This document shows positions 833 through 31,395 of a stretch of DNA of 64,000 nt, piece after piece (position 1 is the stretch's first letter; every line of letters begins with the position of its first letter). The notes beneath the pieces are model-generated. The model was not told where the DNA came from, ran no database searches, and saw only the letters and a program-made list of their open reading frames with translations. The stretch is taken from contig CAZOJI010000011.1 in assembly GCA_964580055.1 (NCBI GenBank), positions 34,759 through 98,758 of the forward strand, in the 5' to 3' direction. Source of the DNA: an uncultured Gemmatimonadaceae bacterium (GTDB taxonomy: Bacteria > Gemmatimonadota > Gemmatimonadetes > Gemmatimonadales > GWC2-71-9). A program made the translations under genes and the position numbers.

Positions 833-854
833 TTGGTTGTTGGAAATCGGGACT

Positions 855-881: not shown

Positions 882-1000
882 GTCCCACTCCTGGACTCCA
901 CAGAAACTTCTTGTCACCGAAAGGCACACGGACTTTCGCGGCTGGGCGAGGGACGGTTTCCAGGCCGGCATGATTGGGTGATGATCGACCGAGGAATCCA

Positions 1001-9196: not shown

Positions 9197-9754
9197 ATGA
9201 CGTTCAGGGAGGCGCTCGAAGGAAAGAAAGAGCAGATCGTAGCAAGGTGGCTCGATGCAGCGCTCTCCCTGTACGCCCGAGATGCTTCTGCCGCTTTCGC
9301 TCGACAGAAGGATCGTTTTGCCAATCCGGTCGGCCACAGTCTGCGTGAAGGTACGCTGGCGATCTTCGAGGCACTTCAGGACGACACTGGCGCCACGACG
9401 ATCCGCCAGCATCTGGTCGAAATCATCAAGATCAGGGCGGTCCAGCAGTTTACGGCTTCCGAGGCCTTGAGCTTCTTCTTCACGCTCAAGGACATTGTGA
9501 GAGAGGAAGTCTCGAACGATCTTCGCGGAGCAAGCGAGCTGCAGGACTGTGTGATGTTCGAGAGAAGGGTCGACGAGGTCGCCTTGGCTGCATTCGACGT
9601 GTATGCTGAGTGCCGCGAAAAGGTGTTCGAATTGAGAGGCAATGAGATGAAGCGCAGGGTTTCTTGGATCGTCGACAAACTGAACAAGCGTGGCAACGGT
9701 CTGGAGCCGTTTGACACCGATCGAGAACGAGAAGAAGAGAATCCGAAGGCGTGA
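9197..9754 (+). CDS. Globin-like/RsbRD_N-type domain protein in the position occupied by dsrT (immediately upstream of dsrM)
   Basis: 185 aa and soluble. The N-terminal pattern EQIVARWLDAALSLY and DRFANPVGHSL resembles RsbR-N-type sensor domains. It ends 22 nt before dsrM. The DsrT assignment is tentative. Confidence 0.6.
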   Translation: MTFREALEGKKEQIVARWLDAALSLYARDASAAFARQKDRFANPVGHSLREGTLAIFEALQDDTGATTIRQHLVEIIKIRAVQQFTASEALSFFFTLKDIVREEVSNDLRGASELQDCVMFERRVDEVALAAFDVYAECREKVFELRGNEMKRRVSWIVDKLNKRGNGLEPFDTDREREEENPKA

Positions 9755-9776
9755 ACGTACTACGAGAGGATCTCCG

Positions 9777-10766: not shown

Positions 10767-10768
10767 CG

Positions 10769-14937: not shown

Positions 14938-16155
14938 ATGGCAGATTCAGGTAACAATGGCACTCCGTTGCTGGACGAACTGGAAAAGGGACCCTGGCCC
15001 AGCTTCGTTACGCAGATCAAGGAGGCAGCCGAAACGAAGGAGTCGTCCGCGGCTCTGTTGAGATTGCTGGAGCGTTCGTACGGTGAGAAGATCGGCCACT
15101 GGAAGCACGGCGGCATCGTGGGTGTGATGGGTTACGGTGGCGGCGTCATCGGCCGGTACAACGATCTGCCGGAGGATTTCCCGGAGATCGCCCATTTCCA
15201 CACGATGCGCATCAACATGCCGACGGGTTGGTTCTACACCTCAGATGCGTTGCGCACGGTGTGTGACATCTGGGACAAACATGGTTCTGGTCTGACCAAC
15301 ATGCACGGATCGACCGGTGACATCATTCTGCTCGGCACGTCCACGGACGAATTGGAGCCTACGTTCCAAGAGTTGGCGCAGAACGGTTTCGATATTGGTG
15401 GCTCGGGCTCCGACCTGCGGACGCCGAGCGCGTGCAATGGCATGGCGCGGTGTGAGTGGGCATGCTACGACACACTGGCTGCCTGTTACGACTTGACTCA
15501 GGAGTTCCAGGACGAGCTGCATCGGCCCGCTTTCCCATACAAGTTCAAGTTCAAGTTTGCTGGATGCCCGAACGACTGCGTTGCGTCGGTGGCGAGAGCC
15601 GATCTGTCGGTCATCGGAACCTGGCGTGACGAGATCCAGATCGATCAGGCAGAGGTGAAGGCTGCTGAAGAAGCTGGACTGGACATACTCAGGGACGTTT
15701 GCTTCAACTGTCCGACGAGGTGCATCGAGTGGGACGGCGAAAAGCTCGAGATCGACGATTCGAACTGCGTGAAGTGCATGCACTGCATCAACGTGATGCC
15801 GAAAGCTCTGCGCCCCGGCAAGGACAGGGGTGCGACGATCATGCTCGGCTCCAAGGCGCCGATTGTGGAAGGTGCGATGCTGTCATCGGTTATCGTTCCG
15901 TTCATGAAGATGGAGCCTCCCTTTGAGGAACTCAAAGACCTGATCGAGAGGATCTGGGATTTCTGGGCTGAGAACGGCAAGAACCGGGAACGCTGTGGCG
16001 AGTTGATGCAGCGCATCGGCCTCGGGAATTTCCTGGAAGAGATCGAGGTGGATCCGATTCCCCAAATGGTTGCACATCCCAGGGACAATCCTTTCATCTT
16101 CTTCGAGGATTACTATGAAGAAGGCGATGAGGATGAGGAAGAAGATGAAGAATAG
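14938..16155 (+). CDS. dsrA: Dissimilatory sulfite reductase alpha subunit
   Basis: Sirohaem/FeS motifs [11 protein letters not shown] and [11 protein letters not shown]. Ferredoxin insert CFNCPTRC / CVKCMHC. Unusual poly-acidic C-terminus [12 protein letters not shown]. Confidence 0.95.
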
Positions 16156-16220
16156 AGCTGCTGGGCGAGACTCTCGGCATGCGAACATGAGACTAATTGT
16201 ACCAATGGGGAGATAGAGCG

Positions 16221-17300
16221 ATGGCAGTGTCAAAGGACAGGATAACGGATATCGGACCTCCGCATTATGAGAAGTTCCTGCATCCAGTTATAAAGAAGAA
16301 CTACGGGCAGTGGAAGTACCATGAGATCTTGAAGCCTGGCGTGATGGTGCATGTCGCCGAATCCGGCGACAAGATCTTCACGGTGCGAACGTCTTCTCCG
16401 AGGCTGCTCTCCACCACACGGATCCGCAAGTTTGCCGAATTGGCGGACAAATACTGCGACGGTCACCTGCGTTTCACCAGTAGAAACAACGTGGAATTTC
16501 TACTCGCGAGTGACGAGAAGATCGACGATCTTATCGCCGAATTGAAGGATCTGGGCCACTCAGTGGGTGGTATCGGCAACGCGATTTCCAATATCGTGCA
16601 CACGCAAGGTTGGGTGCACTGCCACTCGGCAGCGACGGACGCGTCCGGCGTCGTGAAGGCTGTGATGGATGACTTGCACGAACACTTTGCGTCGAACGAC
16701 GTGCCCGGAAAGCTCCGCATCGCCCTGGCATGTTGTCTCAACATGTGCGGCGCCGTACACTGCTCGGACATCGCGATACTCGGAGTGCACCGCAGGCCAC
16801 CGCGGGCTGACCACGCGACTCTCAACAAGCTGTGCGAGATTCCGAATGTGGTTGCCTCGTGTCCTACGGCGGCTATCAGGCCGGCCACGGTGGAGGGGCA
16901 TCCTTCAGTCGAGATTGACGAAGATCTTTGCATGTTCTGCGCGAACTGCTTCACGGTATGTCCGTCTCTACCCATGGCCGACGCGTTGAACGACGGTGTT
17001 TCGATCTGGGTGGGCGGCAAAGTATCGAACGCCCGTTCCGAGCCTACCTTCTCGAAGCTGGCTATACCGTGGCTGCCGAACACCCCGCCGCGTTGGCCTG
17101 AAGTGACAGAAGCGGTGCGGAATATCGTAGACGTGTGGGCGAACAACGCTCGCAAGTTCGAGCGGATGGGCGAATTCATCAACCGTATCGGTTGGCCGAG
17201 GTTCTTTGAGATGACCGGCATCGAGTTCCAGAAGGAACACATCGATGATTTCAAGCACGCGGGACTGACTTACAAGCGGTCCGCGCAGCTCAGACACTAG
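16221..17300 (+). CDS. dsrB: Dissimilatory sulfite reductase beta subunit
   Basis: Has [28 protein letters not shown] and ferredoxin [12 protein letters not shown] motifs. ATG 16221 is preferred over the track start 16197. Confidence 0.95.
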
Positions 17301-17310
17301 GAGGTAACAT

Positions 17311-17568
17311 ATGGCTGTCACGCCGGCAGAAATTGCGGACGCCATGTACGAGATGGTCAAGGAGTATCAGGGCAAAAAGAAGTTCAAGGCCCAGGACTTG
17401 ACCAAGGCAATGATGCAGAAGTTTGCCGACGAAGGAGTCGACAAGAAGCAGTGCAAACTCGCAATTCGTGAGTTGATGGACTCCGGAAGGTGCGTCTACA
17501 CGTACTTCGGCGGCAGCTTCATTGAACTCCCTCACAAAGAGGGAGCTGCTGAAGGAGCCGACGGCTAG
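17311..17568 (+). CDS. dsrD: DsrD, small winged-helix protein
   Basis: 85 aa with the KKKFKAQDL lysine-rich motif and YTYFGGS. Starts 10 nt after dsrB. Confidence 0.88.
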   Translation: MAVTPAEIADAMYEMVKEYQGKKKFKAQDLTKAMMQKFADEGVDKKQCKLAIRELMDSGRCVYTYFGGSFIELPHKEGAAEGADG

Positions 17569-17652: not shown

Positions 17653-19335
17653 ATGGCTGTCAAAAAGACCAAGAAAAGGAAGAAGAAGCGAGATTATAGT
17701 GCATCCGGAGGTGGCGGTGGACGCGAACAATCACCGCTACGGCCGAAGCACGTTGAAAAGAAGCCGCCCTGCCGCGACACCTGTCCCAGCGGTAATCGCA
17801 TTCGGGAGTGGCTGACCACGATCGCCCAGGCCGAACGCTTAGAGAAACCCAGAGACCAGGCATTTACCGAGGCTTGGGATCTCTATACCGACACCAGCCC
17901 GTTTCCGTCGGTGTGTGGACGCGTATGCCCGCATCCTTGCGAGACTGCTTGCAACAGGCAGGAACTGGACGGCGCAGTGGGCATAAATATGGTGGAGCGC
18001 GTAATCGGTGATTTCGGTTTGGAGAACGACCTCAAACTCAAGATGCTCACCGATGAGAAGCGTCCGGAAAAGATTGCGGTCGTTGGTGGCGGGCCCGGTG
18101 GCTTCTCATGTGCTTACCAGCTTGCGAGACGTGGCTACTCCGTTACTGTGTTCGAGGCGTCCGACAAGCCGGGAGGGATGTTGCTCTGGGGTATACCCAG
18201 GTACAGACTCCCCGAGGACGTCATCGAGAAGGAAATCCAGAAAATTTTGGATCTCGGCGTAGAACTGAAATGCGACATCCGAGTCGGAAAGGATATCAGC
18301 CTCGACGAACTTCACGAACAGTACCAAGCCATATTCGTCGCGGTCGGTGCCGAGAAGGGGCTCAAACTCCGCGTTGAGGGAGAGGACGCGGAAAACGTCA
18401 TGTCCGGCGTCGAGTTTCTCAATCGCATTCATCACGGAGAGACGGTCGAAGTCGGCGACGACGTGATTGTCGTAGGAGGTGGTGATACCGCGATCGATGC
18501 TGCACGGATCTGCAGACGTTTGGGCGCCACGGTGACGATCCTCTACCGGCGAACCATCAAAGAGATGCCGGCTATAGACGAAGAGATCGAGGAAGCGCAG
18601 ATCGAGGGTGTCAACCTGGAGTACCTCGCCGCTCCGATCGGTTTCAACAAAGACGGCGACAAGATCACGAGCATGAAGTGTATTCGCATGGAGCTCGGAG
18701 AGCCGGATGATTCCGGAAGACGGCGGCCGGTGCCAATCGAAGGCTCGGAGTTTGAGATCCCAGCGAGTACCGTGATCCCCGCTATCAGTCAGGAACCGGA
18801 CTTCACCGGCCTCGAATCCCTCATCGAGGGACGCGACTGGATCAAAGTGAACGATGAATTCGCTTCCACAAAGGAAGACGATGTGTGGGCAGGCGGCGAT
18901 GCCACCAATCTGGCCTTGGTAACGGACGCCATCGGACATGGCCGATATGCCGCTGAGGCTATAGACAGGAAGTTCCGCGGTTTGGGAAAACCGCAAGACG
19001 GCATGCCGGTCATCACAGCCGACAAGATGCTGCTCGATCACTACGACAAAGCTGAACGCGCCAAAGCAGGAACTCTGCCGGTGGAGGAACGCCTGGCCAG
19101 CATGGAAGCCGAGGTGAACCTGCCTCTGTCCGAGGAAGAAGCGGTCGCAGAGAGCAAACGGTGCATGAGTTGCGGCTATTGCATGGACTGCGAGAAGTGC
19201 TGGATGTACTGCCAAGACCAGGCAATCGACAAACCGATGCAAAGAGGCGCTCTCTACGTCTTCAAACTCGGTAACTGCACGGGTTGCGGAAAATGCGCCG
19301 AGATATGTCCGTGCGGCTTCATCGAGATGGCGTGA
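17653..19335 (+). CDS. DsrL-like NAD(P)H:acceptor oxidoreductase (GltD-type flavoprotein with C-terminal 2x[4Fe-4S] ferredoxin domain)
   Basis: GltD-like N-terminal FeS region (GRVCPHPCETACNR). Two dinucleotide folds (VVGGGPGGFSCAY, VVGGGDTAIDAA). C-terminal CMSCGYCMDCEKC and CTGCGKCAEICPCG motifs. Located directly after dsrABD. Polybasic N-terminus KKTKKRKKKRD. Confidence 0.7.
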   Translation: MAVKKTKKRKKKRDYSASGGGGGREQSPLRPKHVEKKPPCRDTCPSGNRIREWLTTIAQAERLEKPRDQAFTEAWDLYTDTSPFPSVCGRVCPHPCETACNRQELDGAVGINMVERVIGDFGLENDLKLKMLTDEKRPEKIAVVGGGPGGFSCAYQLARRGYSVTVFEASDKPGGMLLWGIPRYRLPEDVIEKEIQKILDLGVELKCDIRVGKDISLDELHEQYQAIFVAVGAEKGLKLRVEGEDAENVMSGVEFLNRIHHGETVEVGDDVIVVGGGDTAIDAARICRRLGATVTILYRRTIKEMPAIDEEIEEAQIEGVNLEYLAAPIGFNKDGDKITSMKCIRMELGEPDDSGRRRPVPIEGSEFEIPASTVIPAISQEPDFTGLESLIEGRDWIKVNDEFASTKEDDVWAGGDATNLALVTDAIGHGRYAAEAIDRKFRGLGKPQDGMPVITADKMLLDHYDKAERAKAGTLPVEERLASMEAEVNLPLSEEEAVAESKRCMSCGYCMDCEKCWMYCQDQAIDKPMQRGALYVFKLGNCTGCGKCAEICPCGFIEMA

Positions 19336-19339
19336 AGCA

Positions 19340-20782
19340 CTGAATTATCCGCGCGTTCTCGTCGCCGGGCTGCGCGGAGGCAGCGGTAAAACACTCGTTT
19401 CTCTGAGTCTGATTGCAGCCTGGCGAAAAAACGGCAAGAAGGTAGCCCCTTTCAAGAAGGGGCCAGACTACATTGACGCGGCATGGCTGTCTGCCGCAGC
19501 GAACGCCCCTTGCCGGAACATCGATTTGTTTCTGATGTCCGGAACGGGCGTTCTGCGTTCGTTAGGTACAGCCTCGAACGCAAGCGACGTCGCTGTGATC
19601 GAAGGCAACCGAGGCCTCTACGATGGAATGGATGCTAGTGGCAGTTACAGTTCCGCTGAACTGGCAAAACTGCTGAGTTCGCCGGTTGTGCTGACAGTTG
19701 ATTGTACCAAGTCCACGCGCACAGTCGCTGCAATGGTCCTGGGTTGTCAGCAGATCGATCCCACGGTCCCACTGCGAGGTGTCGTGCTGAACCAGGTTGG
19801 AGGCACTCGGCATGAGGGAGTGGTGCGTGGCGCGATTGAACGGGACTGCGGGATACCGGTTCTGGGAGTGCTGCCGCGGATTCGGCGCCAGCTTTTTCCC
19901 GAGAGACACCTGGGACTCGTCCCGCCACAGGAACATATGGAGATGAGAGCAGCAATCGAAGGGGTTGCCGCGGTGGGAGAGCAATACCTCGATCTGGATG
20001 CCCTTTGGAGTCTCGCCCGGCAAGCTCCGCGTTTCGAGTTCGAGCCTCATACGGTTGCCGACTCGCCAGGCCCGGAGTGCGAAACGGTCAATATCGGGGT
20101 GTTCCGTGATGCGGCGTTTCAATTCTACTACCCGGAGAACCTGGAGGCTCTGGTCAGGGAAGGTGCGCGTATCAAAGAGATTTCTCCTCTGTCCGACGAG
20201 GAACTTCCCGACGTGGACGCGCTGTATATCGGTGGAGGCTTTCCTGAGACGTTGGCACGGCGGCTGTCATGCAACGAGATCTTTCTCGACTCTGTGCGCA
20301 GGCAGGTAGAAGATGGTCTTCCTGTTTATGCCGAATGTGGCGGAGCCGTCTACTTGGGAGAGAAATTGCTCTACGAGTCCGTAGAGTATCCCATGGTGGG
20401 CGTTCTGCCGGTCTCGTTCGGGTTTCGAGGCAAACCACAGGGGCACGGTTACGTTGAACTGGAGACGGTGCACCGCAACCCCTATTTCCCTGTAGGAAAA
20501 CCGCTGAGGGGACACGAATTCCACTACACTCGTGTGGAATCTTCCGCAATGGATGACATTAGCTTCGCTTTTCGGGTGACCAGAGGTTTCGGATTCGACG
20601 GCGAGCGGGATGGCTTATGTCGATTCAACGTGCTAGCCTCCTACACGCACTTGCATGCTCTGGGAACGGGGAGCTGGGCTCCTGCTGTTGTCCAAGCAGC
20701 CAAGCGATTCAAAACAGGCAGAAGAGACGCGTCGGGCGCCCCGGCGTCGGAGGCGGCGGCGCGTGGAAACCGTCCCTCTTAG
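19340..20782 (+). CDS. dsrN: DsrN, CobB/CbiA-type glutamine amidotransferase (sirohaem amidase)
   Basis: The conserved P-loop N-terminus PRVLVAGLRGGSGKT is encoded in frame upstream of the track start (TTG 19526). No ATG, GTG or TTG is available, so the start is provisionally placed at CTG 19340. C-terminal amidotransferase domain has ECGG. Confidence 0.8.
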   Translation: MNYPRVLVAGLRGGSGKTLVSLSLIAAWRKNGKKVAPFKKGPDYIDAAWLSAAANAPCRNIDLFLMSGTGVLRSLGTASNASDVAVIEGNRGLYDGMDASGSYSSAELAKLLSSPVVLTVDCTKSTRTVAAMVLGCQQIDPTVPLRGVVLNQVGGTRHEGVVRGAIERDCGIPVLGVLPRIRRQLFPERHLGLVPPQEHMEMRAAIEGVAAVGEQYLDLDALWSLARQAPRFEFEPHTVADSPGPECETVNIGVFRDAAFQFYYPENLEALVREGARIKEISPLSDEELPDVDALYIGGGFPETLARRLSCNEIFLDSVRRQVEDGLPVYAECGGAVYLGEKLLYESVEYPMVGVLPVSFGFRGKPQGHGYVELETVHRNPYFPVGKPLRGHEFHYTRVESSAMDDISFAFRVTRGFGFDGERDGLCRFNVLASYTHLHALGTGSWAPAVVQAAKRFKTGRRDASGAPASEAAARGNRPS

Positions 20783-21772
20783 ATGAAAGACAACATGATG
20801 CGATTACGCAGTTTCAAGGTGTTCACTCGTGTAGGCGCGTTCGTCTTCCTGGCGCTTGCACTGCATCCGGCACTTCTGCACGCAATGCAGGAGACGACGG
20901 CGGCTCCAGGCGCCGATACGGTAGCCTGGTGGGTGTGGCCGTTGGTGCTGCTCGTGCTGACGTTTGTGATGGGGATCCTTGCTGCGTTGGGTGGTGTGGG
21001 TGGAGGGGTACTCTTCGTACCAATCGTCAGCGGTTTCTTTCCCTTCCATCTCGATTTCGTACGTGGCGCAGGGCTGTTGGTGGCTCTGAGTGGCGCACTA
21101 GCCGCGGGACCTGGGTTTTTGAAGATGAACCTGGCGAGCTTACGGTTGGCAATGCCTGTGGCCCTGATCGCGTCTACCTGCGCGATCATAGGGGCAATGA
21201 TAGGTCTGGCTCTCCCGACCAATGTCGTGCAGACCGCCTTGGGTGCCACCATTCTCGGAATCGTGATTCTCATGATCACAGCCAAGAAGTCGGAGTTTCC
21301 CGACGTTCCCAAGGCGGACGGGATTTCATCTGCCTTGGGGATCTACGGAGTCTATACCGAGGCAAGCTTGGGGAAGAACATCGACTGGAAGATCCATCGG
21401 ACGGCGCACGGTCTCTTCTTGTTCATCTTCATTGGTCTGATGGCGGGAATGTTCGGGCTCGGTGCAGGTTGGGCAAATGTTCCCGTTCTGAACCTGGTCA
21501 TGGGAGCACCGCTCAAGATCAGTGTGGCAACGAGCAAGTTCTTGCTGTCCATAACTGATACCTCGGCTGCCTGGGTGTATCTCAACCAAGGTTGCGTTAT
21601 CCCAATGATGGTTGTTCCGTCATTGATAGGAATAATGCTGGGGTCGTTCATCGGCGTGAGAATCCTCAGGGTTGCAAAACCGAGCTTCGTTCGCTGGCTC
21701 GTAATCGGCCTGCTACTGTTCGCGGGGGCCAAAGCCATTACCAAGGGCTTGGGCATTCCGTTTTTCTTCTAG
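20783..21772 (+). CDS. TauE/SafE (TSUP) family anion permease
   Basis: Polytopic membrane protein with Gly-rich repeats GGVGGGVLFVP and GLGAGWANVP typical of the TauE/SafE family. Its ATG directly abuts the dsrN stop (0-nt gap). Confidence 0.75.
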   Translation: MKDNMMRLRSFKVFTRVGAFVFLALALHPALLHAMQETTAAPGADTVAWWVWPLVLLVLTFVMGILAALGGVGGGVLFVPIVSGFFPFHLDFVRGAGLLVALSGALAAGPGFLKMNLASLRLAMPVALIASTCAIIGAMIGLALPTNVVQTALGATILGIVILMITAKKSEFPDVPKADGISSALGIYGVYTEASLGKNIDWKIHRTAHGLFLFIFIGLMAGMFGLGAGWANVPVLNLVMGAPLKISVATSKFLLSITDTSAAWVYLNQGCVIPMMVVPSLIGIMLGSFIGVRILRVAKPSFVRWLVIGLLLFAGAKAITKGLGIPFFF

Positions 21773-21793
21773 GATGCTTGGGGAGCGATACCA

Positions 21794-22240
21794 ATGACTG
21801 AAGATACGAAAACCCCGGAAGCCAACGAGGAACAGCTCCTCTATGCGAGAATTCTGGAAGTCGGGATGTACACCGGTTTGGCACTTCTGCTGGTGACCTT
21901 CGTGCTCTATATGACCGGGATTCTAGCGCCGGCAATACCGATCGAGAGGGTCCCAGATTATTGGGTCATGAGCGTCCACGACTACGGTGAGGCCATCAAT
22001 CGCGATTTCTTGCATCGAGATCATATGGTGACTGGGTGGGGCTGGTTGGCGGTTGTTTCCAAGGGAGACTTTAGCAATTTTTTGGGCATCGCCTTCCTCT
22101 CTGGAGTGACCATCGTTTGTTACATCGGTATCATACCCACACTCATTCGGAAGAAACAAACTGCCTACTTACTGATAGCCGTGGCCGAAGTATTGATTCT
22201 AGTGCTTGCGGCCAGCGGGATACTCTCAGTAGGCCACTGA
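21794..22240 (+). CDS. Small membrane protein, DUF1634-like (tentative) partner of the TauE permease
   Basis: 148 aa with about 4 hydrophobic helices, 21 nt after the permease gene. The family name comes from my memory that this pairing is frequent and is not verified. Confidence 0.5.
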   Translation: MTEDTKTPEANEEQLLYARILEVGMYTGLALLLVTFVLYMTGILAPAIPIERVPDYWVMSVHDYGEAINRDFLHRDHMVTGWGWLAVVSKGDFSNFLGIAFLSGVTIVCYIGIIPTLIRKKQTAYLLIAVAEVLILVLAASGILSVGH

Positions 22241-22299
22241 TTCGGTGCGCATGAATGGTAGAATTCGAGTGATGCCAAGAAGGCTGTGATAGAGGGTTT

Positions 22300-22794
22300 T
22301 TGACTAACCTAAAGTTCCTGCCCGTGGGCTTGGATGTTCGTGAGAAAAAGTGCGTTGTCGTGGGTGGTGGCGTCGTTGGCAGCCGCAAAGTCACGAACCT
22401 AGTTAGAGCCGGGGCGAAAGTTACCGTGATCTCACCCGATGTGGTGGACAGCTTGGCTGGCGAGATAGAAGCCGGAACCGTGCTGTGGATTCAGGACTCG
22501 TATCGGGCGGAATATCTCGAGGGTGCGTTTGCGGTGGTCGCCGCCACCGACGACGAGGCGCTCAATGCGCACATCGTGCAAAACGCCACAGACCGGCAAA
22601 TCCTTATTTGCGACGCATCCGCTGCTGAGCGTTCGAACCTGATCTTTGGTGCTTTGCACACGCTCGAAGACGGCGTTACGATTGCCGTATTCACTGACGG
22701 CCGGGACCCAGCCAAAGCCAGAAGGTCGCGAGACCTCATCGCCAACCTTTTGGACGCGGGCGGCATGCAAGGTGGCAAATCCGAGTTTGGTTGA
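22300..22794 (+). CDS. sirC: Precorrin-2 dehydrogenase / sirohydrochlorin ferrochelatase (SirC/Met8/CysG-N type)
   Basis: N-terminal Rossmann motif KCVVVGGGVVGSRKV and overall length match the short siroheme synthase N-domain. TTG start. Confidence 0.75.
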   Translation: MTNLKFLPVGLDVREKKCVVVGGGVVGSRKVTNLVRAGAKVTVISPDVVDSLAGEIEAGTVLWIQDSYRAEYLEGAFAVVAATDDEALNAHIVQNATDRQILICDASAAERSNLIFGALHTLEDGVTIAVFTDGRDPAKARRSRDLIANLLDAGGMQGGKSEFG

Positions 22795-22806
22795 ACGCTA
22801 AAGGGT

Positions 22807-24819
22807 ATGCCAATTCACTCAAAGTCACGGCGCCAAAGCGCTTTGCTACTGCTATCGTTCGGCAGCAGTATCTCGGCTGACGCGAAAGTTCTGGCGCAGA
22901 CTTTGTCGGAGCAGGCTTCCGTTTTGACCGAACTGTTGCCAAAAGGGTGGCAGGTGTACAACGCACTGCGCCATGGGCAACCGACGATAGAGCACACCTT
23001 GACACACCTGGACAGCAGCGTCGAGGAACTAGTCGTGTTGCCCACATACCCCCAGTACTCATGGGCGACTAGCGGTTCCATCATGAGTGAGGTCTACAGG
23101 GTCCTCGGCGAAATACTGAAGCCCATAGATTTGTCGACCCGCCACGCTTGGCACAATGACAGCGGGTACATAAATGCGCAGGCGAGGTTGATTGCGTCAT
23201 TTACTTCTTCTCGTGAATTGCTGCCGCGCGACTATCAAATCGTCTTCTTGGCTCATGCCGCCAAGCTGGAAGATGGCAGTGCGGATTCACTCTATGAACA
23301 ACAGGTTGCCGAGACCGCCGATTTGGTTCTGGAGCGGCTCGGATGGCCTCGCGATTGCAGTTCGCTGCTCCACGGGGATTGGGGGGCTCGAGGTGATGTA
23401 GAAGGAAACGATTTGTCCAGAAGACTCCGTTGCCTCGCGGATGAGGGCGTAAGACGCGTGGTCTTGTTCCCTTTGACATCCCCGCTGGACATAGACGTCG
23501 GCACCGAGCTGGCGAACGAAGGCCGGCTGGAGCAGTTCAAGGTTCGCGGTGGAGATGTCGTGGTCGGTCCGGCCCTGGGTTCGTATGCGCCGCTCTCGTC
23601 AGTGTTGAAGAACATTGCTCTCCGCGGTTCCCAGCCGGTGATTGCTGGTATGGGCAAGACGATTCCGCTGTTGGCTCCCGAACGGGTTGTGGAGCGGGTC
23701 GAGAGCTCTCCACGGTCGCTGGTAATGATAGGAGCCTCTGTGGCCGGCAAGGTCCGGGGAGAACACGGACCGGACGTCGTTCACAGCCCTGCGAGAGTCT
23801 TTGGCGAAGTGAAGAAGACGCGAACGGAGCTGCGAGGGTTCTTGGATTGGGTCCGAGAAGAAACTGCTGTGGCGGAAGCCTTCGTATGGAGCACCTGCCA
23901 GCGCATCGAGTTCTTTGGTTGGTTATCGGAGTCGGATGTTCCGGCGGATTCCGATTGGCCGGTGGCAAGAATCCGCCAGCATCTCTACGGAGCCGAACCA
24001 GAGGGGCTCAAGGTCAACGTTCTGTTCGGAGTGGAAGCGTGGCACCATCTGCTTCGTACAGCTTGCGGGCTCAATAGTGCCTTGCCTGGCGACACTGACG
24101 TCATGGATCAACTGCAAACGTCCTTTAGGATGGCGGAGCGAGTCGGGGCGGCGGGCACCAGGGCGCTCGACTTGGTGGAAAATGCAGTTGCAGTAGCCCA
24201 GGAAGTGCGCGCCGAGACGGATTGGAGCCGCTTCAGTCGGGGATATTGTGCAGCAGCGCTGTCGAGGATTCATGACCTGAGTGGCGCAGACCTGGAGAGA
24301 TGTCGCCATGTAGTGATTGGAGGATCGGCCACTTCACGTTCGGTACTCTTCACATTGTCTGAGCGGTTCCGGGTACTCCATCGTCAGATGACATTGATAT
24401 ACCGCGATCACCATGGGCAGATGAAGCCGTTGCGCAACGCGATCGGAAACGGCGTGAGGTTGCGCGTTCACTCGTACTCCGAGGAAAGCGTTATCAGGGC
24501 GATCGCAGATGCGGATTTCGTCTTCTTCGGGATCGATTACGCGAAACCCGTTCTGACGGGGGAGATGCTTGCGGGTTCCCGTGACTTTTCGGCACGGCCT
24601 CTGGTGATAGTCGATTTCAATGATTCGGGCTCGGTGAGTGAGTTGGAACGTGTCAGAGGGATTACGGTTTGGAATGCGGCTGACCTTGATCTGGCAGTGG
24701 AATCTTACGCCGAGGTGATGTGTTCGGACAGTCGTTTTCCTCACGCTTTGGAACAGGTTGAGAATTGGATAGAGACGCGCTTGCCTTCGGCTGAGGATGA
24801 TGACAAGCAACACAGTTAG
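22807..24819 (+). CDS. Fusion protein: N-terminal ferrochelatase (HemH/class II chelatase)-like domain plus C-terminal glutamyl-tRNA reductase (HemA)-like domain, both with degenerate motifs
   Basis: Residues about 10-275 have VVLPTYPQYSWATSGS (compare HemH LPLYPQYS) and FLAHA (compare SAHSLP). Residues about 303-660 have VWSTCQRIEFF (compare LSTCNRTE) and LLRTACGLNSALPGDTDVMDQL (compare RVASGLDSMVLGEPQILGQV). The NADPH GxGxxG motif is degenerate (VIGGSATS). Confidence 0.65.
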   Translation: MPIHSKSRRQSALLLLSFGSSISADAKVLAQTLSEQASVLTELLPKGWQVYNALRHGQPTIEHTLTHLDSSVEELVVLPTYPQYSWATSGSIMSEVYRVLGEILKPIDLSTRHAWHNDSGYINAQARLIASFTSSRELLPRDYQIVFLAHAAKLEDGSADSLYEQQVAETADLVLERLGWPRDCSSLLHGDWGARGDVEGNDLSRRLRCLADEGVRRVVLFPLTSPLDIDVGTELANEGRLEQFKVRGGDVVVGPALGSYAPLSSVLKNIALRGSQPVIAGMGKTIPLLAPERVVERVESSPRSLVMIGASVAGKVRGEHGPDVVHSPARVFGEVKKTRTELRGFLDWVREETAVAEAFVWSTCQRIEFFGWLSESDVPADSDWPVARIRQHLYGAEPEGLKVNVLFGVEAWHHLLRTACGLNSALPGDTDVMDQLQTSFRMAERVGAAGTRALDLVENAVAVAQEVRAETDWSRFSRGYCAAALSRIHDLSGADLERCRHVVIGGSATSRSVLFTLSERFRVLHRQMTLIYRDHHGQMKPLRNAIGNGVRLRVHSYSEESVIRAIADADFVFFGIDYAKPVLTGEMLAGSRDFSARPLVIVDFNDSGSVSELERVRGITVWNAADLDLAVESYAEVMCSDSRFPHALEQVENWIETRLPSAEDDDKQHS

Positions 24820-24882
24820 GCGTTGACGATTGCGCTTCGGGCGTCCGTGGCGATGGGAGAATATTTTCCCTAGAGAGGATCC

Positions 24883-25683
24883 ATGAGCAGACACGCTTTG
24901 TCGGCGCTGCTGGTATCACTGTGTGTTTCGGGCTTTGCTCCTGCGAGTGCGACCGGCCAAGTAGAGATCTCACTCGATGAGCTCGAGCCCGAACACTATC
25001 GCTACGCGCAAGCAGAGAATTGCGTCAACTGCCATCAGATCGGCAATGACATCATGTTCCGCGCGGTCGGTGTGGACATCTCTTCGGGTGAAGTGCGGCG
25101 GGACGGGCGCGGTTGGCTCGCCAGCGTACATTCGAGGTCACAGAGTCACGGCAACCGCGTCAATAGTGTGTGTGCCTGGTGTCATGCACCGACTTCACCT
25201 GATGCGACACGAGACTCCGCGGCAGCCGTGCCAATCGAGACAGGCACATGGGAGGGTGTTACTTGTGGCGCTTGCCATCCCGGCCGATTGGAAAAGAGCA
25301 AGCGTGAGTCGCTGCTGATCAACTTCTTGCCTGGTTCAACCCCGACGGAACCTGCTGGCTACGCTTTCATCGACAAGTCAAAACCCGTTCAGTTCAACGA
25401 GCAGTGCAGGTATTGCCACCATCAGTCACACGACCTGTTGTCGCCGGCAATGAGCGGAATGCTGGAAGCCGGAGAACTACGCTGCATCGATTGTCACATG
25501 GCCGGCTACGGTTTTGCCGAGAACCGGATAGTGGAACGGTTTCACAACATGAAGGTCGAAGCCAACGGTCCAATGTCATGCAGTGGCCGATACGGCACTG
25601 AGGCAGGCTGCCATCCCAACGCCACCGCCGCTTGGATGGAAACAAACCTCCCCAACGTCAAGGGCCCACGCAAGGACTGGTAG
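24883..25683 (+). CDS. Secreted multihaem cytochrome c (5 CxxCH plus one possible CX9CH)
   Basis: Signal peptide MSRHALSALLVSLCVSGFAPASA. Haem motifs CVNCH, CAWCH, CGACH, CRYCH and CIDCH, plus CSGRYGTEAGCH. Confidence 0.8.
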   Translation: MSRHALSALLVSLCVSGFAPASATGQVEISLDELEPEHYRYAQAENCVNCHQIGNDIMFRAVGVDISSGEVRRDGRGWLASVHSRSQSHGNRVNSVCAWCHAPTSPDATRDSAAAVPIETGTWEGVTCGACHPGRLEKSKRESLLINFLPGSTPTEPAGYAFIDKSKPVQFNEQCRYCHHQSHDLLSPAMSGMLEAGELRCIDCHMAGYGFAENRIVERFHNMKVEANGPMSCSGRYGTEAGCHPNATAAWMETNLPNVKGPRKDW

Positions 25684-25704
25684 CTTACGGGTACTTCTCA
25701 TCTC

Positions 25705-26058
25705 TCAGTAAGAATGAGTGCCCAGCACGACCTCCACGCCGAACTTTTCCTCTAGAAGCGGCTTCAAGCTGTCAAAGTCTATCGGGCATTGAGCCGTTTC
25801 CATCGCCAACTTGACGCAGGTGCCCAGATGCAGCACGTCGATTGGGCGGTCCAGGTTACGGGTGGTTTCGTTTAGCAGCTTGACGCGAGGAACGGCGAGC
25901 CCGGGGCAGTCACCACAGTCGCTCATGGCCACGAGTTCGATGTTGTCGTGGCGGGCGAACTCACCGTTCTTCTCACTCATTCCCTTGTAACACTTCGCGC
26001 ATGCGATGCAGGAATAGTCCTTCACTCGTTTGCAGTATAAGATTGCTACGTTTGCCAT
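25705..26058 (-). CDS. CGGC-domain protein
   Basis: MANVAILYCKRVKDYSCIACAKC ... SDCGDCPG pattern typical of CGGC-domain proteins. Start moved to the internal ATG (26058). Confidence 0.65.
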   Translation of the reverse strand: MANVAILYCKRVKDYSCIACAKCYKGMSEKNGEFARHDNIELVAMSDCGDCPGLAVPRVKLLNETTRNLDRPIDVLHLGTCVKLAMETAQCPIDFDSLKPLLEEKFGVEVVLGTHSY

Positions 26059-26141
26059 TTTGTACTCTGATTCCCTGGAGGTCCATTCGGGTCTTCCACG
26101 CGTCTCCGCTGCGTGGAGCATTGCATTTCACACAATTTGGG

Positions 26142-26570
26142 TCAGGATTCGTATCCTTGAGCTGTATAGAACATGGCTCGGTCGAAGAACAGGACTGTAC
26201 GGTTGCTGAGCTGCATGGCGAGGCTCATGTCCATGGCCGAGTCCAACAAGCCGTCCGACTCGATCTTCAGCCAGAGCACGCGCCTGGTGACGATCAAAGC
26301 CTGTAAAACCTCAGAGAGCTTGAACCCCTCGTCGCGCCTGTGCTGCCCAAGCGTGAAATAGATGCGTTTGATTTCGACCTTCGTGGCGGCGTCCGAAAGC
26401 CACTTGCCGAGCTGACTGTAGACACTGAAAGCTCGCTCGTGCAACTGATCGCAGTCGTATGTGTGATACGTTGGAGTGTCGGGATGAGTGGTGACTATGT
26501 CCATCCACTTCCTCGTCAGTTCCTCGGCATTGTTCTCGATCAACCCGACCAGTCTTCGAGAGAGGGGCAT
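26142..26570 (-). CDS. Stand-alone RsbR-N/globin-like sensor-domain protein, paralog 1
   Basis: 142 aa. A GGAGGA RBS lies 8 nt before ATG 26570. Collinear with paralog 2 (for example, ERAFSVYSQLGKWLS is identical). Confidence 0.65.
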   Translation of the reverse strand: MPLSRRLVGLIENNAEELTRKWMDIVTTHPDTPTYHTYDCDQLHERAFSVYSQLGKWLSDAATKVEIKRIYFTLGQHRRDEGFKLSEVLQALIVTRRVLWLKIESDGLLDSAMDMSLAMQLSNRTVLFFDRAMFYTAQGYES

Positions 26571-26704
26571 TTCCTTATCCTCCAAATGAGACGTAATACG
26601 TTTGGTTCGTATCGCTGCTCGCGGGATGCCATCTGCACAACGATCACTTCAGCAGTGTCGTTACCCGCGCGATTGCAGTCTGGAGGTAAACCTGGATTGC
26701 TCCC

Positions 26705-27133
26705 TCAGGTCTCGTATCCCTGCGCGGCGAAGAACATTGCTCGATCGAAGAATAGGATCGTATTGTTACTGATTTCCATACCCTCGTGCATGCTCGAGAT
26801 GTCTTCTAGAAGGTCGCCTCTCGGTAGCTTCAGCCAAAGCACGCGCCGCGTGATCATCAGTGCCAGCAGCAATTCGGAGAGCTTGAAGCCTTCCTCCCGC
26901 CGCTGCTTACCAAGCGCGAAATACACCTCTTTGATGTCGTCTTTTGTCGTCTCCTCAGACAGCCACTTGCCGAGTTGGCTGTAAACGCTGAATGCGCGCT
27001 CGTACAGTTTCTTCTCTTCGTATGTACGATATGTCGGCATGTCGGGGTGCGTGCGCACCACGTCGATCCACTTCCTGGTCAACTCGTCCGCGGTATCCTC
27101 GATGAGTCTGACTAGTTTTCCCTTTAGCTGCAT
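26705..27133 (-). CDS. Stand-alone RsbR-N/globin-like sensor-domain protein, paralog 2
   Basis: 142 aa. GAGGTG RBS before ATG 27133. Collinear matches to paralog 1: ELTRKWIDVVRTHPDMPTYRTY, RREEGFKLSELLLALMITRRVLWLK and LFFDRAMFFAAQGYET. Confidence 0.65.
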   Translation of the reverse strand: MQLKGKLVRLIEDTADELTRKWIDVVRTHPDMPTYRTYEEKKLYERAFSVYSQLGKWLSEETTKDDIKEVYFALGKQRREEGFKLSELLLALMITRRVLWLKLPRGDLLEDISSMHEGMEISNNTILFFDRAMFFAAQGYET

Positions 27134-27395
27134 ATGTTCCACCTCTACAATGTATGACCGGCGAATCGCACTCGAACATGTCAACCGTCTCGTCTGTTGC
27201 TTCGAAATGGGCAAGGAACGACGTCCATGTCTCGCTTCCAGGTCGAGGCGGTACCGTAGAACGTTATCCCGTTGTCAGGTATGTTGCAATGCGGCCCGAT
27301 TGTCTAAGTGCCTATTGCCGCGCTCCGTGTCAGTATTATGCTAAAATCGGCAAGTGACAATTGGCACATGCGATCCTAGCTTGTTATGAGATGAT

Positions 27396-28659: not shown

Positions 28660-29703
28660 ATGCTTTATAGGATTTTGGCTAAAGACGAGTGGATTCGTCT
28701 CGTCGAAAATATGTTGGGGGCGGGGGAGGTCATAGGACCCAAGAAGATTACAACCGACAGGCACGGCAAGGATGTACATCAATACCTGCCAGTCCAGAGT
28801 GTCGCGGAAATCGATCTGGGGTACGAGACCACGGAATATTCGGCGAAGACGTACTTCCTGCCATTCAAGGAAACGTTGTCCGAATACCGCTTCATCGAAG
28901 ACGACTGGGAACAGGAGATACGGTACCGCCTCCAGCCAAGAGCAATTGTCGGTCTTCATGCTTGTGACATCAATAGCTTGCTGAAGCTCGACAAAGTCTT
29001 CGTTCACGGTATGTTCCCGAGTCCGTACTATGTGTCCCGTCGTGAAAACACGTTCATCGTCGGCGTCGACCACGACCCTTGCGAGGGTGGATTCTGTAGA
29101 TCGCTCGGTACTGACACGGTGACCCACGGTTTCGACCTGTTTCTGACCGACTTGGGTGACCGCTATTTCGTGGCTGTCGGTTCCGACACTGCTTATACCG
29201 CGCTCATGCAGGTGGAAAACCGGGAGATCACCGAGGCCGACACACAGGATTATCTGGAGGTTCGCAGGCGAATCGCGGATGGATTCGAAACCAAGATCGA
29301 CGCTAACAACCTCTCAAACCTCCTCGATATCGAATTCGAATCAGATGTTTGGACCCATTGGGGTGATAAGTGTCTTAGCTGCGGAAGTTGTGCGATGGTC
29401 TGTCCCACGTGCTACTGCTATGGGGTGACGGAATGCCAGTCTATGGACGGGACCTCCGCGCGCCGAGTCAAGCAGCTCCATTCCTGCAACTTCATCGATT
29501 TTGCGCGTGTCGCCGGGGGACACAATTTCCGGCCCGGACGGGCCACGAGATTGAAGTACCGGTACTACCACCAACACCGTGGATTCGCGGAAGCGTACGA
29601 ACAGGCAAAATGTGTCGGTTGTAACCGATGCGGCCGCGTTTGCCTGGCCGGAATCAACCCGCCGGCCGTCATTGCGGATCTGCAGGAAGAGGGTGTGCGA
29701 TGA
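28660..29703 (+). CDS. hydB: Group 3b [NiFe] hydrogenase (sulfhydrogenase-type) beta subunit, FeS protein (AsrA-like)
   Basis: Has CLSCGSCAMVCPTCYC and CVGCNRCGRVC. Gene order B-G-D-A matches the Pyrococcus sulfhydrogenase operon. Confidence 0.8.
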   Translation: MLYRILAKDEWIRLVENMLGAGEVIGPKKITTDRHGKDVHQYLPVQSVAEIDLGYETTEYSAKTYFLPFKETLSEYRFIEDDWEQEIRYRLQPRAIVGLHACDINSLLKLDKVFVHGMFPSPYYVSRRENTFIVGVDHDPCEGGFCRSLGTDTVTHGFDLFLTDLGDRYFVAVGSDTAYTALMQVENREITEADTQDYLEVRRRIADGFETKIDANNLSNLLDIEFESDVWTHWGDKCLSCGSCAMVCPTCYCYGVTECQSMDGTSARRVKQLHSCNFIDFARVAGGHNFRPGRATRLKYRYYHQHRGFAEAYEQAKCVGCNRCGRVCLAGINPPAVIADLQEEGVR

Positions 29704-30608
29704 CGGGTCTGTTTTATCCCTACGACGTGACCCGGGAAGCCGAGGTCAGAGAGCCGCTCGACTTTAAGCGAAGAAGTCGCCTGCAACATGTGGATCGCAC
29801 CTTTAAAGCCGAGATCACGAACGTCACGAAACTGACGGATATGGAGAAGCTGTTCCACATTCGGCTGTTGAGGGAGAGTGAACGCGAGCGTTTCACGTTC
29901 TTGCCCGGCCAATTCGTAATGGTCGAGGTTCCTGGTTACGGAGAAATCCCTATATCAATTTCCGGCTCAACTACGCAGAGGGGGATTCTGGAACTCTGTA
30001 TCCGGAGAGTTGGGTTGGTTACCGGAGTGTTGCACAGAACCAGTCCGGGAGCGTTGATCGGCATCCGCGGTCCCTTTGGTACGCATTTCCCGTTGGGGCG
30101 GATGAAGGGCAACAACGTCTTGCTCATCGCCGGGGGGCTGGGTTTGGCTCCTCTGCGCTCGGCGATATTTGCCGTGACAGAGAGCCGAGCCGACTACGAG
30201 GACGTGCATATTCTGTATGGTACTGCTACGCCTAGCAATCTCTTGTTCGACTATCAGTACGAACAATGGCGGCGAGTCAACGGCGTGAAGCTTTCGATAA
30301 TCGTTGACCGCGGTGATGAGAATTGGGGAGGCCCCGTCGGTCGCATCACCGATTTGTTGCCGAATGTGGGCGGCGTGGCGCGTGACACGTACGCAATAGT
30401 CTGTGGCCCTCCCGTGATGTTCAAGTTCGTGTGCAATTGGCTGAGTGAACAGGGTATGCCCATGCAGCGAATGTTCGTTTCTCTCGAGCGACGAATGCAC
30501 TGTGGAATGGGCAAGTGCTGCAGGTGCAACGTTGGCTCGACCTACACCTGTTTGTCGGGGCCGGTTTTCGACTATTGGACCGTTATGAACCTGAAGGAAG
30601 CGATCTGA
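29700..30608 (+). CDS. hydG: Group 3b hydrogenase gamma subunit (FAD/NAD(P)-binding, 2Fe-2S; AsrB/PyrK-like)
   Basis: Ferredoxin-reductase fold with C-terminal HCGMGKCCRCNVGSTYTC. ATG 29700 overlaps the hydB stop (ATGA). Confidence 0.8.
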   Translation: MTGLFYPYDVTREAEVREPLDFKRRSRLQHVDRTFKAEITNVTKLTDMEKLFHIRLLRESERERFTFLPGQFVMVEVPGYGEIPISISGSTTQRGILELCIRRVGLVTGVLHRTSPGALIGIRGPFGTHFPLGRMKGNNVLLIAGGLGLAPLRSAIFAVTESRADYEDVHILYGTATPSNLLFDYQYEQWRRVNGVKLSIIVDRGDENWGGPVGRITDLLPNVGGVARDTYAIVCGPPVMFKFVCNWLSEQGMPMQRMFVSLERRMHCGMGKCCRCNVGSTYTCLSGPVFDYWTVMNLKEAI

Positions 30609-30612
30609 CGCC

Positions 30613-31395
30613 ATGAAGTATCTGGGCATTGAACCGAAGAAACCTCGGGTGGCCGTGTTCGATTTCACGTCTTGTGAGGGTTGCGAGCTTCAATTGGCCA
30701 ACAAGGAAGAAACGCTCGTCGACTTTCTGGGATCCATAGAAGTGGTCGATTTTCGTGAGATCTCTTCGGCCCGCAGCGAAGAGTACGACATAGCGCTCGT
30801 CGAGGGATCGGTCACCCGCGCTGACGAAATAGAACGCCTTCTAAAGATCCGCAAACGAGCCAAGACTCTGGTGGCTCTGGGTACATGCGCCTGTTTCGGC
30901 GGCGTCAACAAACTGAAGAACGAGTTCGATTTGACGGACGCCAACCGCGAGGTATACGGAGATCGCACCAAGGAAACGCTACCGGCACGAGCTGTCGACG
31001 AGCTGGTGAAGGTGGATCTCAAGATCCCCGGCTGTCCCATCTGCAAGGACGAGGTAGAAAGCATACTTCAGCATCTCGTCTGGGACATTCCTTACACGTT
31101 CCCAGCCTATCCGGTATGCCTGGAGTGTAAACAGCGCTTCACCGTTTGTGTGTGGGATCTCGATTATCCGGAAGGCGGCTCGGACAAACTGGGCCAGTTG
31201 TGCCTGGGGCCGATCACGCGCGCCGGCTGCAACGCACCTTGCCCTGCGGGCGGCTTGGGGTGCTGGGGGTGCCGCGGCCCGGCCGAAGACGCGAACATCG
31301 AATCGTTCCTGGCGATAGCAAACGAGAGAGGTTTCAGTGCACGCGAGATCGAAGAGCGGTTTGAGTTCTTTGGTGCATTCGAGGGTGTGAAATGA
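30613..31395 (+). CDS. hydD: Group 3b [NiFe] hydrogenase small (delta) subunit
   Basis: Has FDFTSCEGCELQ and ALGTCACFGG cluster-binding motifs. No Tat signal, so cytoplasmic. Confidence 0.85.
   Translation: MKYLGIEPKKPRVAVFDFTSCEGCELQLANKEETLVDFLGSIEVVDFREISSARSEEYDIALVEGSVTRADEIERLLKIRKRAKTLVALGTCACFGGVNKLKNEFDLTDANREVYGDRTKETLPARAVDELVKVDLKIPGCPICKDEVESILQHLVWDIPYTFPAYPVCLECKQRFTVCVWDLDYPEGGSDKLGQLCLGPITRAGCNAPCPAGGLGCWGCRGPAEDANIESFLAIANERGFSAREIEERFEFFGAFEGVK

Follow-up and report, generated by a model that had tools for sequence, protein, structure and literature searches.

In the present study, we analysed a stretch of 64,000 nucleotides from an uncultured Gemmatimonadaceae bacterium (assembly GCA_964580055.1, contig CAZOJI010000011.1, positions 34,759 to 98,758; hereafter the window, to which all coordinates refer), in which a run of dsr genes carries an open reading frame (ORF) of unusual domain make-up. 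This ORF (22807..24819, + strand, ATG start, 670 aa) is one intact, genuine fusion gene, joining a half derived from the ferrochelatase HemH to a short half resembling glutamyl-tRNA reductase (GluTR, HemA). It belongs to a fusion family that is recurrent, yet undescribed in the papers found, while the component enzymes and their pathway are well known. We lean, with only modest confidence, towards the reading that the short GluTR half works and feeds siroheme and siroamide synthesis for DsrAB, and that the N-terminal half is a former chelatase that would no longer be catalytic.

An intact fusion gene of a recurrent family

All motifs quoted in the original prediction, which had been made from the letters without database searches, lie where it had placed them in the 670-aa ORF, namely VVLPTYPQYSWATSGS at residues 76-91, FLAHA at 147-151, VWSTCQRIEFF at 360-370, LLRTACGLNSALPGDTDVMDQL at 415-436 and VIGGSATS at 503-510, and the 12-nt gap after sirC is likewise present. 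Its assignment of one HemH-like and one HemA-like half is supported by Pfam, NCBIfam alignment, an AlphaFold2 (AF2) model and Foldseek. In Pfam, PF00762 (Ferrochelatase) matches residues 30-270 (E 2.9e-26, 92.7 bits against a gathering score of 27) and PF05201 (GlutR_N) residues 329-471 (E 1.5e-18, 67.4 bits, gathering score 27). The AF2 model, built on 33 homologues, has a mean predicted local distance difference test (pLDDT) score of 85, and with Foldseek against the PDB its N-half matches human and B. subtilis ferrochelatases at E ~1e-11, while the best matches of the C-half are the GluTR structures 5yjl, 4n7r and 1gpj at E ~1e-17. Both halves score under the NCBIfam equivalog cut-offs (59.1 bits vs 124.6 for hemH, TIGR00109; 79.7 vs 209.55 for hemA, TIGR01035); two long relatives, L016 and P0110, reach 259-263 bits with the hemH model. 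The halves are connected by an inter-domain linker (23632..23712, + strand, aa 276-302), whose residues 292-298 have pLDDT <50.

The original prediction had also pointed to a possible frameshift or assembly join near 23.6-23.7 kb. Such an artefact is excluded because dozens of assemblies made independently, and belonging to two phyla, contain the contiguous fusion ORF and because no composition break was seen. A protein identical to the window fusion is on record on three contigs, and in our alignment set (77 non-redundant copies from 76 loci) every copy has both halves in one uninterrupted ORF, except those that stand alone or are truncated by a contig end.

The two-domain architecture is shared by about 90 protein clusters at 90% identity, as retrieved by a word-indexed protein search, and when one genome per GTDB species was scanned, 93 genomes proved to encode the fusion. 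The retrieved loci are all metagenome-assembled genomes (MAGs; 79/79), nearly all of them Gemmatimonadota or Planctomycetota (mostly Phycisphaerae) and a few named just 'bacterium'. Closed genomes with the fusion include CP070666.1, CP070812.1, CP070792.1, CP070685.1, CP070691.1, CP070744.1, CP070772.1 and OY776568.1. With the other members found, the window protein shares 34-66% identity, its closest relatives being Gemmatimonadota proteins of 62-63% identity in the same gene order, and it has the features by which we delimit the family: both domains in one ORF, TCxRxE, GLNSxLPG[DE], [IV]GGSxT[SA] and DFN motifs, and no dimerisation domain. When the C-half was run against 1.84 billion cluster representatives in an exhaustive HMMER search, 67 were retrieved at E<1e-30, and canonical GluTRs of ~420 aa, which are 27-31% identical, did not show up before E 1e-10 to 1e-15. 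Between the two lies a sparse layer of stand-alone 'short GluTR-like' proteins of 350-375 aa with GLNS, FGID and DFN motifs.

Full-text literature searches found no description of a ferrochelatase-GluTR fusion. Within the portions of a 2026 Chem Rev haem review (PMC13564367) that contain 'fusion' or 'fused', the sole ferrochelatase fusion is the HemH-HemQ protein of C. acnes, and a search of PMC3004389 by term likewise retrieved no ferrochelatase-GluTR fusion in the parts covered. The claim that no such fusion had been described therefore stands as far as papers go, but it missed a recurrent family that databases already annotate automatically, as 'ferrochelatase' or 'protoheme ferro-lyase/glutamyl-tRNA reductase'.

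Additionally, a more distant stand-alone protein of 353 aa (L082, 8001-9062) represents short GluTR-like proteins from low guanine-cytosine organisms, which carry STCNRFE, GLNSGLxxE, GSGSTT or GSGGTA, FGID and DFNS motifs and whose genes adjoin resB/ccsA-type cytochrome c assembly genes, with hemD nearby. Judged by these motifs, they may belong to a wider clade of GluTRs without a dimerisation domain.

The GluTR-like half

The C-terminal half comprises a GluTR-type catalytic domain (23713..24219, + strand; PF05201), with Cys364 (23896-23898) in TCQRIE, His413/His414 and GLNSALPGDTD, and a Rossmann-type nucleotide-binding domain (24220..24786, + strand), recognised by TIGR01035, by profile alignment to 1GPJ and 4N7R, and by Foldseek. 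In the latter, GGSATS (24319-24336) stands for GxGxxG and YRDH for NR(S/T), and DFN is present. TIGR01035 aligns residues 338-632 with profile positions 22-305 of 416; therefore, the protein has the Rossmann part but neither a spinal helix nor a dimerisation domain. The protein ends ~38 residues past this match, and neither PF00745 nor PF01488 matched it in Pfam at E<=0.01, in agreement with the earlier remarks on VIGGSATS in place of GxGxxG and on a shortened C-terminus.

The catalytic Cys of TCxRxE is found in 77/77 copies, and GLNSxLPG[DE] and [IV]GGSxT[SA] are near-invariant. We aligned a profile of 33 C-halves to the GluTRs of M. kandleri (1GPJ) and Arabidopsis (4N7R), and family residues lined up with C48, R50, E52, H84, S94 and E99 of the M. 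kandleri enzyme. Read motif by motif, the family has T-C-Q-R-x-E where canonical GluTR has T-C48(S)-N-R50-V-E52, HH for H84, GLNS for GL(E/D)S, PGDxD for VGEQE or LGEGQ, VIGGSTTSRS for VVGAGEMGKT, and TLVYRxH for VLVANRT. The pocket residues T363, R366, E368, H414 and S424 are invariant, E99 is replaced by D429, and D431 occupies the Gln position. Thus the family retains the nucleophile, the Arg, Ser, His and acidic residues that bind glutamate and, from NR(S/T), the Arg for the 2'-phosphate, and the glycine-rich loop has become a conserved Ser/Thr-rich loop; the roles of these residues are reportedly those derived from the M. kandleri GluTR structure by Moser and co-workers in 2001.

Taken as a family pattern, these residues make the GluTR-like half look catalytically competent. 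The original prediction had regarded this half as degenerate. However, GGSxTS and the lack of a dimerisation domain are the norm of the family, also in the haem operons of Planctomycetota, and the C-half does not appear degenerate because its odd motifs are family-wide and its catalytic Cys and glutamate-pocket residues are invariant.

The ferrochelatase-derived half

The N-terminal domain (22807..23631, + strand, aa 1-275) lacks the lid of ferrochelatases: its PF00762 match begins at profile position 68 of 317, so that positions 1-67 (~65 residues) are absent, and the window protein has 11 residues where long forms carry a 65-residue N-terminal lid. His150 (23254-23256) in FLAHA aligns with FSAHS, that is, with the catalytic His263 of human ferrochelatase (H183 in B. 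subtilis), and the YPQYS loop also aligns with the human enzyme. The site of the catalytic Glu (Glu343 in human ferrochelatase, E264 in B. subtilis) is occupied by Val231; DxxET is gone and the segment reads PLDIDVGTE, which bears out the earlier statement that the C-terminal acidic/His motif of HemH is not recognisable. With the catalytic Glu and the lid both gone, the N-half of the window protein is probably a chelatase no longer.

No PF01903 or PF06180 (SirB/CbiX/CbiK) match to the window protein was obtained at E<=0.01, and the best structural matches are of HemH type. An origin of the N-half from CbiX or CbiK was accordingly considered and rejected, Pfam and Foldseek both placing it with HemH.

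The two halves have evolved differently in the two genomic settings of the family. The long forms keep the His of FSAHGLP, the Glu of DCLETLEE and a full N-terminus, and lie above the hemH equivalog cut-off. Both chelatase residues, His and Glu, are kept in 35/36 full-length copies beside hemN/E/Y (the exception has Asp for Glu), whereas none of the 20 dsr-linked copies, the window included, keeps both, and only 4/20 keep the His (Fisher p 3e-14 for the comparison, uncorrected for phylogeny). The nearest relatives, L003, L004 and L006, have Gln at this His. Mean pairwise identity of N-half and C-half is 0.59 and 0.46 in haem-operon copies but 0.35 and 0.53 in dsr-linked ones, a contrast that persists at matched C-half divergence; positions conserved at >=90% number 83 and 73 in the former, against 28 and 103 in the latter. 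In the window's clade, the nonsynonymous rate (dN) is 0.25 for the N-half and 0.04-0.065 for the C-half, i.e., the N-half evolves 4-6 times faster, whereas in haem-operon pairs N-half dN is at or below C-half dN. The ratio of nonsynonymous to synonymous rates (omega) in this clade is about 0.12-0.20 for the N-half and 0.03-0.04 for the C-half, figures that come from the closer L003, L004 and L005 pairs and are rough, since the synonymous rate (dS) is saturated in most comparisons; between the window and its relatives, this saturation left no usable ratio.

In a neighbour-joining tree of the C-half, the Gemmatimonadota copies all fall into a single clade, nested among those of Planctomycetota, and in the same tree the dsr-linked Planctomycetota copies L056 and L063 have lost the His independently of the Gemmatimonadota clade. 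The dsr-linked N-half has thus decayed, yet it appears to stay under a weaker purifying selection, which suggests a non-catalytic role.

Gene context of the fusion

We called and clustered ORFs in all loci and named the clusters by Pfam and NCBIfam, the gene calls being crude. In Planctomycetota, the long form (~760-800 aa) comes first in the run hemN-hemE-hemY-hemB (hemN 469 bits vs 325; protoporphyrinogen oxidase, hemY, 264 vs 98), and hemD, hemC and hemL (594 bits vs 527 for hemL) lie alongside in many loci. The Planctomycetota loci thereby encode the whole route from glutamate-1-semialdehyde to protoporphyrin, missing only GluTR and ferrochelatase, which correspond to the halves of the fusion. 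Across more than 30 complete haem operons with a hemL gene, the fusion C-half is the only hemA candidate of the operon, and no canonical hemA or hemH was found within ~10 kb of the fusion in any of the 80+ related loci. Two related arrangements point in this direction as well. In L084 (6955-9212) and L085 (4587-6844), hemH (349 aa, 271 bits) is unfused and shares 4 nt with a short hemA-like gene of 403 aa, both of them within a hemL...hemN-hemE...hemY cluster, and P0110, on a 15.9-kb NCBI contig, is a 1269-aa HemH-GluTR-like-HemN triple fusion whose HemH and HemN parts lie above the equivalog cut-offs.

In Gemmatimonadota, the fusion follows tauE, a 148-aa membrane protein gene and sirC, and is located downstream of dsrABDLN or beside aprA-/qmo-like genes. 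A sirC homologue (or, in the crude gene calls, its antisense ORF) lies directly upstream of the fusion in most of these loci, and in some clusters a small CbiX, a CobA/HemD fusion and a HEAT-repeat protein are encoded right behind it. Three Gemmatimonadota lineages lack the N-half altogether and have a stand-alone C-half of 352-388 aa beside cbiX and cobA/hemD, or beside sirC.

Several side observations concern these loci. Where a Gemmatimonadota locus has both tauE and sirC, the 148-aa membrane protein is in most cases encoded between them, and in most haem operons of Planctomycetota the gene immediately before the fusion encodes a conserved ~180-aa membrane protein without a Pfam match (e.g., L062, 9002-9544). 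The Phycisphaerales chromosome CP070685.1 (L053) carries two paralogous fusions 8 kb apart, at 3-1724 (-) and 9635-12013 (+), one of them first in a haem operon and the other adjoining cbiX and cobA/hemD, which suggests a haem-branch and a siroheme-branch copy. Furthermore, many long Planctomycetota fusions (L016, L021, L027, L029, L041, L058, L065, L076 and others) end in ~45 Cys-rich residues with the pattern LPC-x11-12-C-x2-C after the GluTR-like domain, and carry DCLET where DHxET is usual. This tail may form a [2Fe-2S] site like that of some ferrochelatases, tying the C-terminus back to the N-terminal domain.

Proposed role and alternative explanations

According to the reading we lean towards, the ancestral form, still present in Planctomycetota, would have been a two-enzyme protein carrying out the opening (GluTR) and closing (ferrochelatase) steps of the haem pathway, and in the window's lineage the gene would have come to lie in the dsr operon, after sirC and dsrN. 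A thioester would form as Cys364 attacks Glu-tRNA; its reduction by hydride from a nicotinamide cofactor, for which the altered GGSxTS/YR motifs would provide the binding site, would then set glutamate-1-semialdehyde free. In this manner tetrapyrrole flux would be raised whenever DsrAB, which requires siroheme and siroamide, is expressed. The N-half, minus its lid and catalytic Glu, would be retained for folding, for the docking of a partner or for binding tetrapyrroles, without catalysis of its own. That the fusion is linked to the siroheme supply of DsrAB had been put forward in the original prediction and is the most economical reading of the gene context. The clustering of a hemA gene with that of precorrin-2 dehydrogenase has a precedent in archaea (PMC3004389).

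Several points weigh against this reading. The C-half scores under the GluTR equivalog cut-off in every form tested (64-83 bits vs 209.55), haem-operon relatives included (64-76 bits vs 209.55), and it lacks both PF00745 and the canonical GxGxxG; Ser for the second Gly of the nucleotide motif could impair dinucleotide binding. His150 is kept and no other chelatase gene was found in the 64-kb window, so that some residual chelatase activity is possible. The omega values, as stated above, are rough. It is gene context that points to siroheme supply, and it is strand, spacing and the absence of predicted terminators that point to co-transcription with the dsr genes. GluTR activity, cofactor use, the loss of chelation and any regulatory role are inferred as well, as opposed to the integrity of the gene, its two folds, the distribution and gene contexts of the family, the conservation of residues and the unequal rates of the halves, which are shown.

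One alternative, which we hold possible though doubtful, retains a regulatory function for the altered half: the chelatase domain of the dsr operon would be a non-catalytic sensor of haem, siroheme or sirohydrochlorin that allosterically controls the fused short GluTR, and the ancestral chelatase would have gated pathway entry. If true, an end-product feedback switch would be built into one protein, which would do the job of separate factors in plants and bacteria (haem inhibition of GluTR, FLU, GBP).

The SirB-like role that the original prediction had proposed for the chelatase half fares rather poorly, and we regard as unlikely a bifunctional siroheme-supply enzyme in which a GluTR C-half is coupled to an N-half remodelled, with its lid removed and its cleft opened, into a sirohydrochlorin ferrochelatase acting after SirC. 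The fusion gene does lie directly downstream of sirC, no CbiX, SirB or CysG-type chelatase was found in the 64-kb window, His150 aligns with the catalytic His of human ferrochelatase, and the N-half is still under purifying selection; loss of the lid also brings the domain near the size of CbiK/SirB-type chelatases. However, the half is HemH-derived, with no CbiX/CbiK signal in Pfam, and its catalytic residues drift: the His is Gln in L003, L004 and L006, and other dsr-linked copies have Pro, Asp, Arg, Tyr, Asn, Ser or Glu there; nor do the dsr-linked copies conserve the Glu position, and their 28 conserved N-half positions include no substitute His, Glu or Asp. Moreover, a separate small CbiX adjoins the fusion in several sister dsr clusters, and the N-half was deleted entirely in three lineages.

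It is improbable that the whole protein is a pseudo-enzyme, for instance a tetrapyrrole-binding regulator or chaperone for haem sensing or for the hand-over of siroheme or siroamide to DsrAB. Scores under the NCBIfam equivalog cut-offs for both halves, a non-canonical nucleotide-binding motif and the lack of a dimerisation domain would all fit. The idea, raised in the original prediction, fits the N-half, given that 0/20 dsr-linked copies keep His and Glu and that this half evolves 4-6 times faster, but not the C-half: none of the 77 copies deviates at the catalytic Cys or at the Thr, Arg, Glu, His, Ser and acidic residues of the pocket, C-half dN is very low, the same C-half is the sole hemA candidate in more than 30 complete haem operons with hemL, which needs glutamate-1-semialdehyde, and stand-alone C-halves occur within siroheme gene sets.

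Equally improbable, in our estimation, is that the GluTR-like half reduces another Cys-thioester (of some other acyl or aminoacyl substrate, or of a tetrapyrrole carboxylate side chain) instead of Glu-tRNA. It forms a clade of its own, well separated from canonical GluTR (27-31% identity, E 1e-10 to 1e-15), and the pocket exchanges of Glu to Asp and Gln to Asp, together with the altered nucleotide motif, could mean a changed substrate or cofactor. However, the residues of 1GPJ that reportedly recognise glutamate (Moser and co-workers, 2001) are kept or conservatively replaced, the M. kandleri GluTR is itself acidic at the Gln position, and operons with hemL and no other hemA nearby call for a GluTR.

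That two genes were merely joined by a frameshift or mis-assembly has a vanishingly small probability: no support for it was found beyond the low confidence with which the linker was modelled, and the identical protein on three contigs, the fusion ORF in dozens of assemblies and the even composition all contradict it.

Relation to known systems and wider meaning

With canonical GluTR (M. kandleri 1GPJ, Arabidopsis 4N7R/5YJL, TIGR01035), the family C-half shares the catalytic-domain fold and a Rossmann-type second domain, its occurrence in haem operons with hemL, and an alignable set of residues made up of the TC(N/Q)RxE nucleophile motif, the His, the Ser of GL(D/N)S, the acidic residue and the Arg after beta-2. 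It differs in being fused to a ferrochelatase, in lacking the spinal helix and dimerisation domain, and in having GGSxTS for GxGxxG, YRxH for NR(S/T), and FGID/DFN for S(A/T)T and DIAVPR. With HemH (PpfC/CpfC; human 1HRK, B. subtilis 1AK1; TIGR00109), the window protein shares the class II chelatase fold, the YPQYS loop and His150, but it is without ~65 N-terminal residues and the catalytic Glu of DxxET.

A comparable natural fusion is the HemH-HemQ (CpfC-ChdC) protein of C. acnes (Cutibacterium), in which a ferrochelatase is also joined to another haem-pathway enzyme and which historically revealed a link in the pathway (PMC13564367). There, however, the partner is the next enzyme of the pathway and both halves are active, whereas here the partner is the first enzyme. 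CysG, Met8p, SirA/SirB/SirC and CbiX likewise represent dedicated siroheme supply by fused or clustered genes, comparable with the sirC-like gene directly upstream in the window and with CbiX and CobA/HemD beside sister copies. Unlike the fusion, these systems contain no GluTR or HemH-type domain, and the sirC-like protein of the window differs from them in carrying an NAD-binding domain only. In archaea whose tetrapyrrole flux runs via sirohydrochlorin or siroheme, hemA adjoins the gene of precorrin-2 dehydrogenase (PC2-DH, the sirC equivalent; PMC3004389), but the genes there are separate, canonical and outside a dsr operon.

Entry into tetrapyrrole synthesis is controlled at GluTR, and the manner of end-product feedback on this enzyme is a long-standing question. 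A fusion of GluTR with the terminal chelatase offers a compact system for testing that coupling, with unfused, triple-fused and chelatase-dead states available for comparison. With this family, a clade of short GluTRs is also delimited that have no dimerisation domain and whose nucleotide motif is non-canonical. As its members are automatically labelled 'ferrochelatase' or fall below thresholds, pathway reconstructions of Planctomycetota and Gemmatimonadota MAGs may wrongly call hemA missing. Furthermore, the fusion adds a tetrapyrrole-entry enzyme to the accessory genes that travel with dsrAB (dsrN, sirC, cbiX, cobA/hemD).

The dsr gene run and other features of the window

As the original prediction had described, the fusion sits in one gene run with sirC, dsrN and other dsr genes, on the same (+) strand throughout, in the order dsrM-dsrK-(dsrJ)-dsrO-dsrP-dsrA-dsrB-dsrD-like-dsrL-dsrN-tauE-148-aa membrane protein-sirC-fusion-multihaem cytochrome c. 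The genes dsrA (14938-16155; TIGR02064, 574 bits) and dsrB (16197-17300; TIGR02066, 496 bits) both score above the cut-offs. The ORF that follows dsrB (17311-17568, + strand) we take to be dsrD-like, by sequence recognition and by its place behind dsrB. The dsrL gene (17653..19335, + strand; NF009410, 581 bits) is of DsrL-2 type and has the YRR motif in the form ILYRRT. The YRR motif marks the NADPH-specific DsrL-2, and the 'dsrABDL-2' arrangement goes with reductive-type DsrAB (PMC7596348); a dsrD-like gene followed by a DsrL with YRR gives the window this arrangement in a Gemmatimonadota genome.

Next comes dsrN, a siroheme amidase gene of the CobB family (19339..20782, + strand; TIGR00379, 362 bits), with an approximate start at an apparent CTG. 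The N-terminal P-loop segment of DsrN (PRVLVAGLRGGSGKT; 19336-19530) is in frame before the first ATG, GTG or TTG (a TTG at 19526). In the L002 orthologue, the codon aligned with this CTG is the GTG at which the gene starts, which points to either a non-canonical start or a mutated start codon in the window. The run continues with a tauE-family sulfite-exporter-like gene (20783-21772, + strand; PF01925), with the gene of the 148-aa conserved membrane protein (21794-22240, + strand), which has no Pfam match and is kept upstream of sirC in Gemmatimonadota loci, and with a gene for a sirC-like short precorrin-2 dehydrogenase (22300..22794, + strand). The latter measures 164 aa from its first start (156 aa from 22324, where gene callers begin it) and consists of the NAD-binding domain only (PF13241, NAD_binding_7, E 3.6e-28; TIGR01470, cysG_Nterm, 87.9 bits vs 62.3). 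Between its stop (TGA, 22792-22794) and the ATG of the fusion at 22807 lies a 12-nt spacer (22795..22806, + strand), acgctaaagggt, with a Shine-Dalgarno-like AAGGG, and no terminator-like site was predicted on the + strand from 21000 to 26000.

In tblastn searches of the 64-kb window, queries for HemB/C/D/E/L/N/Y, CbiX and CobA/HemD, and likewise for canonical GluTR (P0096) and canonical HemH (P0095, P0097), met only the fusion itself and weak Rossmann matches. Directly downstream of the fusion lies a multihaem c-type cytochrome gene (24883..25683, + strand; PF14522 and related families), which has the same place in L003-L005. Further along, the four genes at 28660-32669 (Fer4_22, FAD/NAD-binding, Oxidored_q6, NiFeSe_Hases) resemble a sulfhydrogenase-type NiFe hydrogenase and are conserved downstream in L003-L005; between this set and the dsr run, a CGGC-domain gene and two tandem RsbRD_N-like genes lie on the opposite strand (25705-27214).

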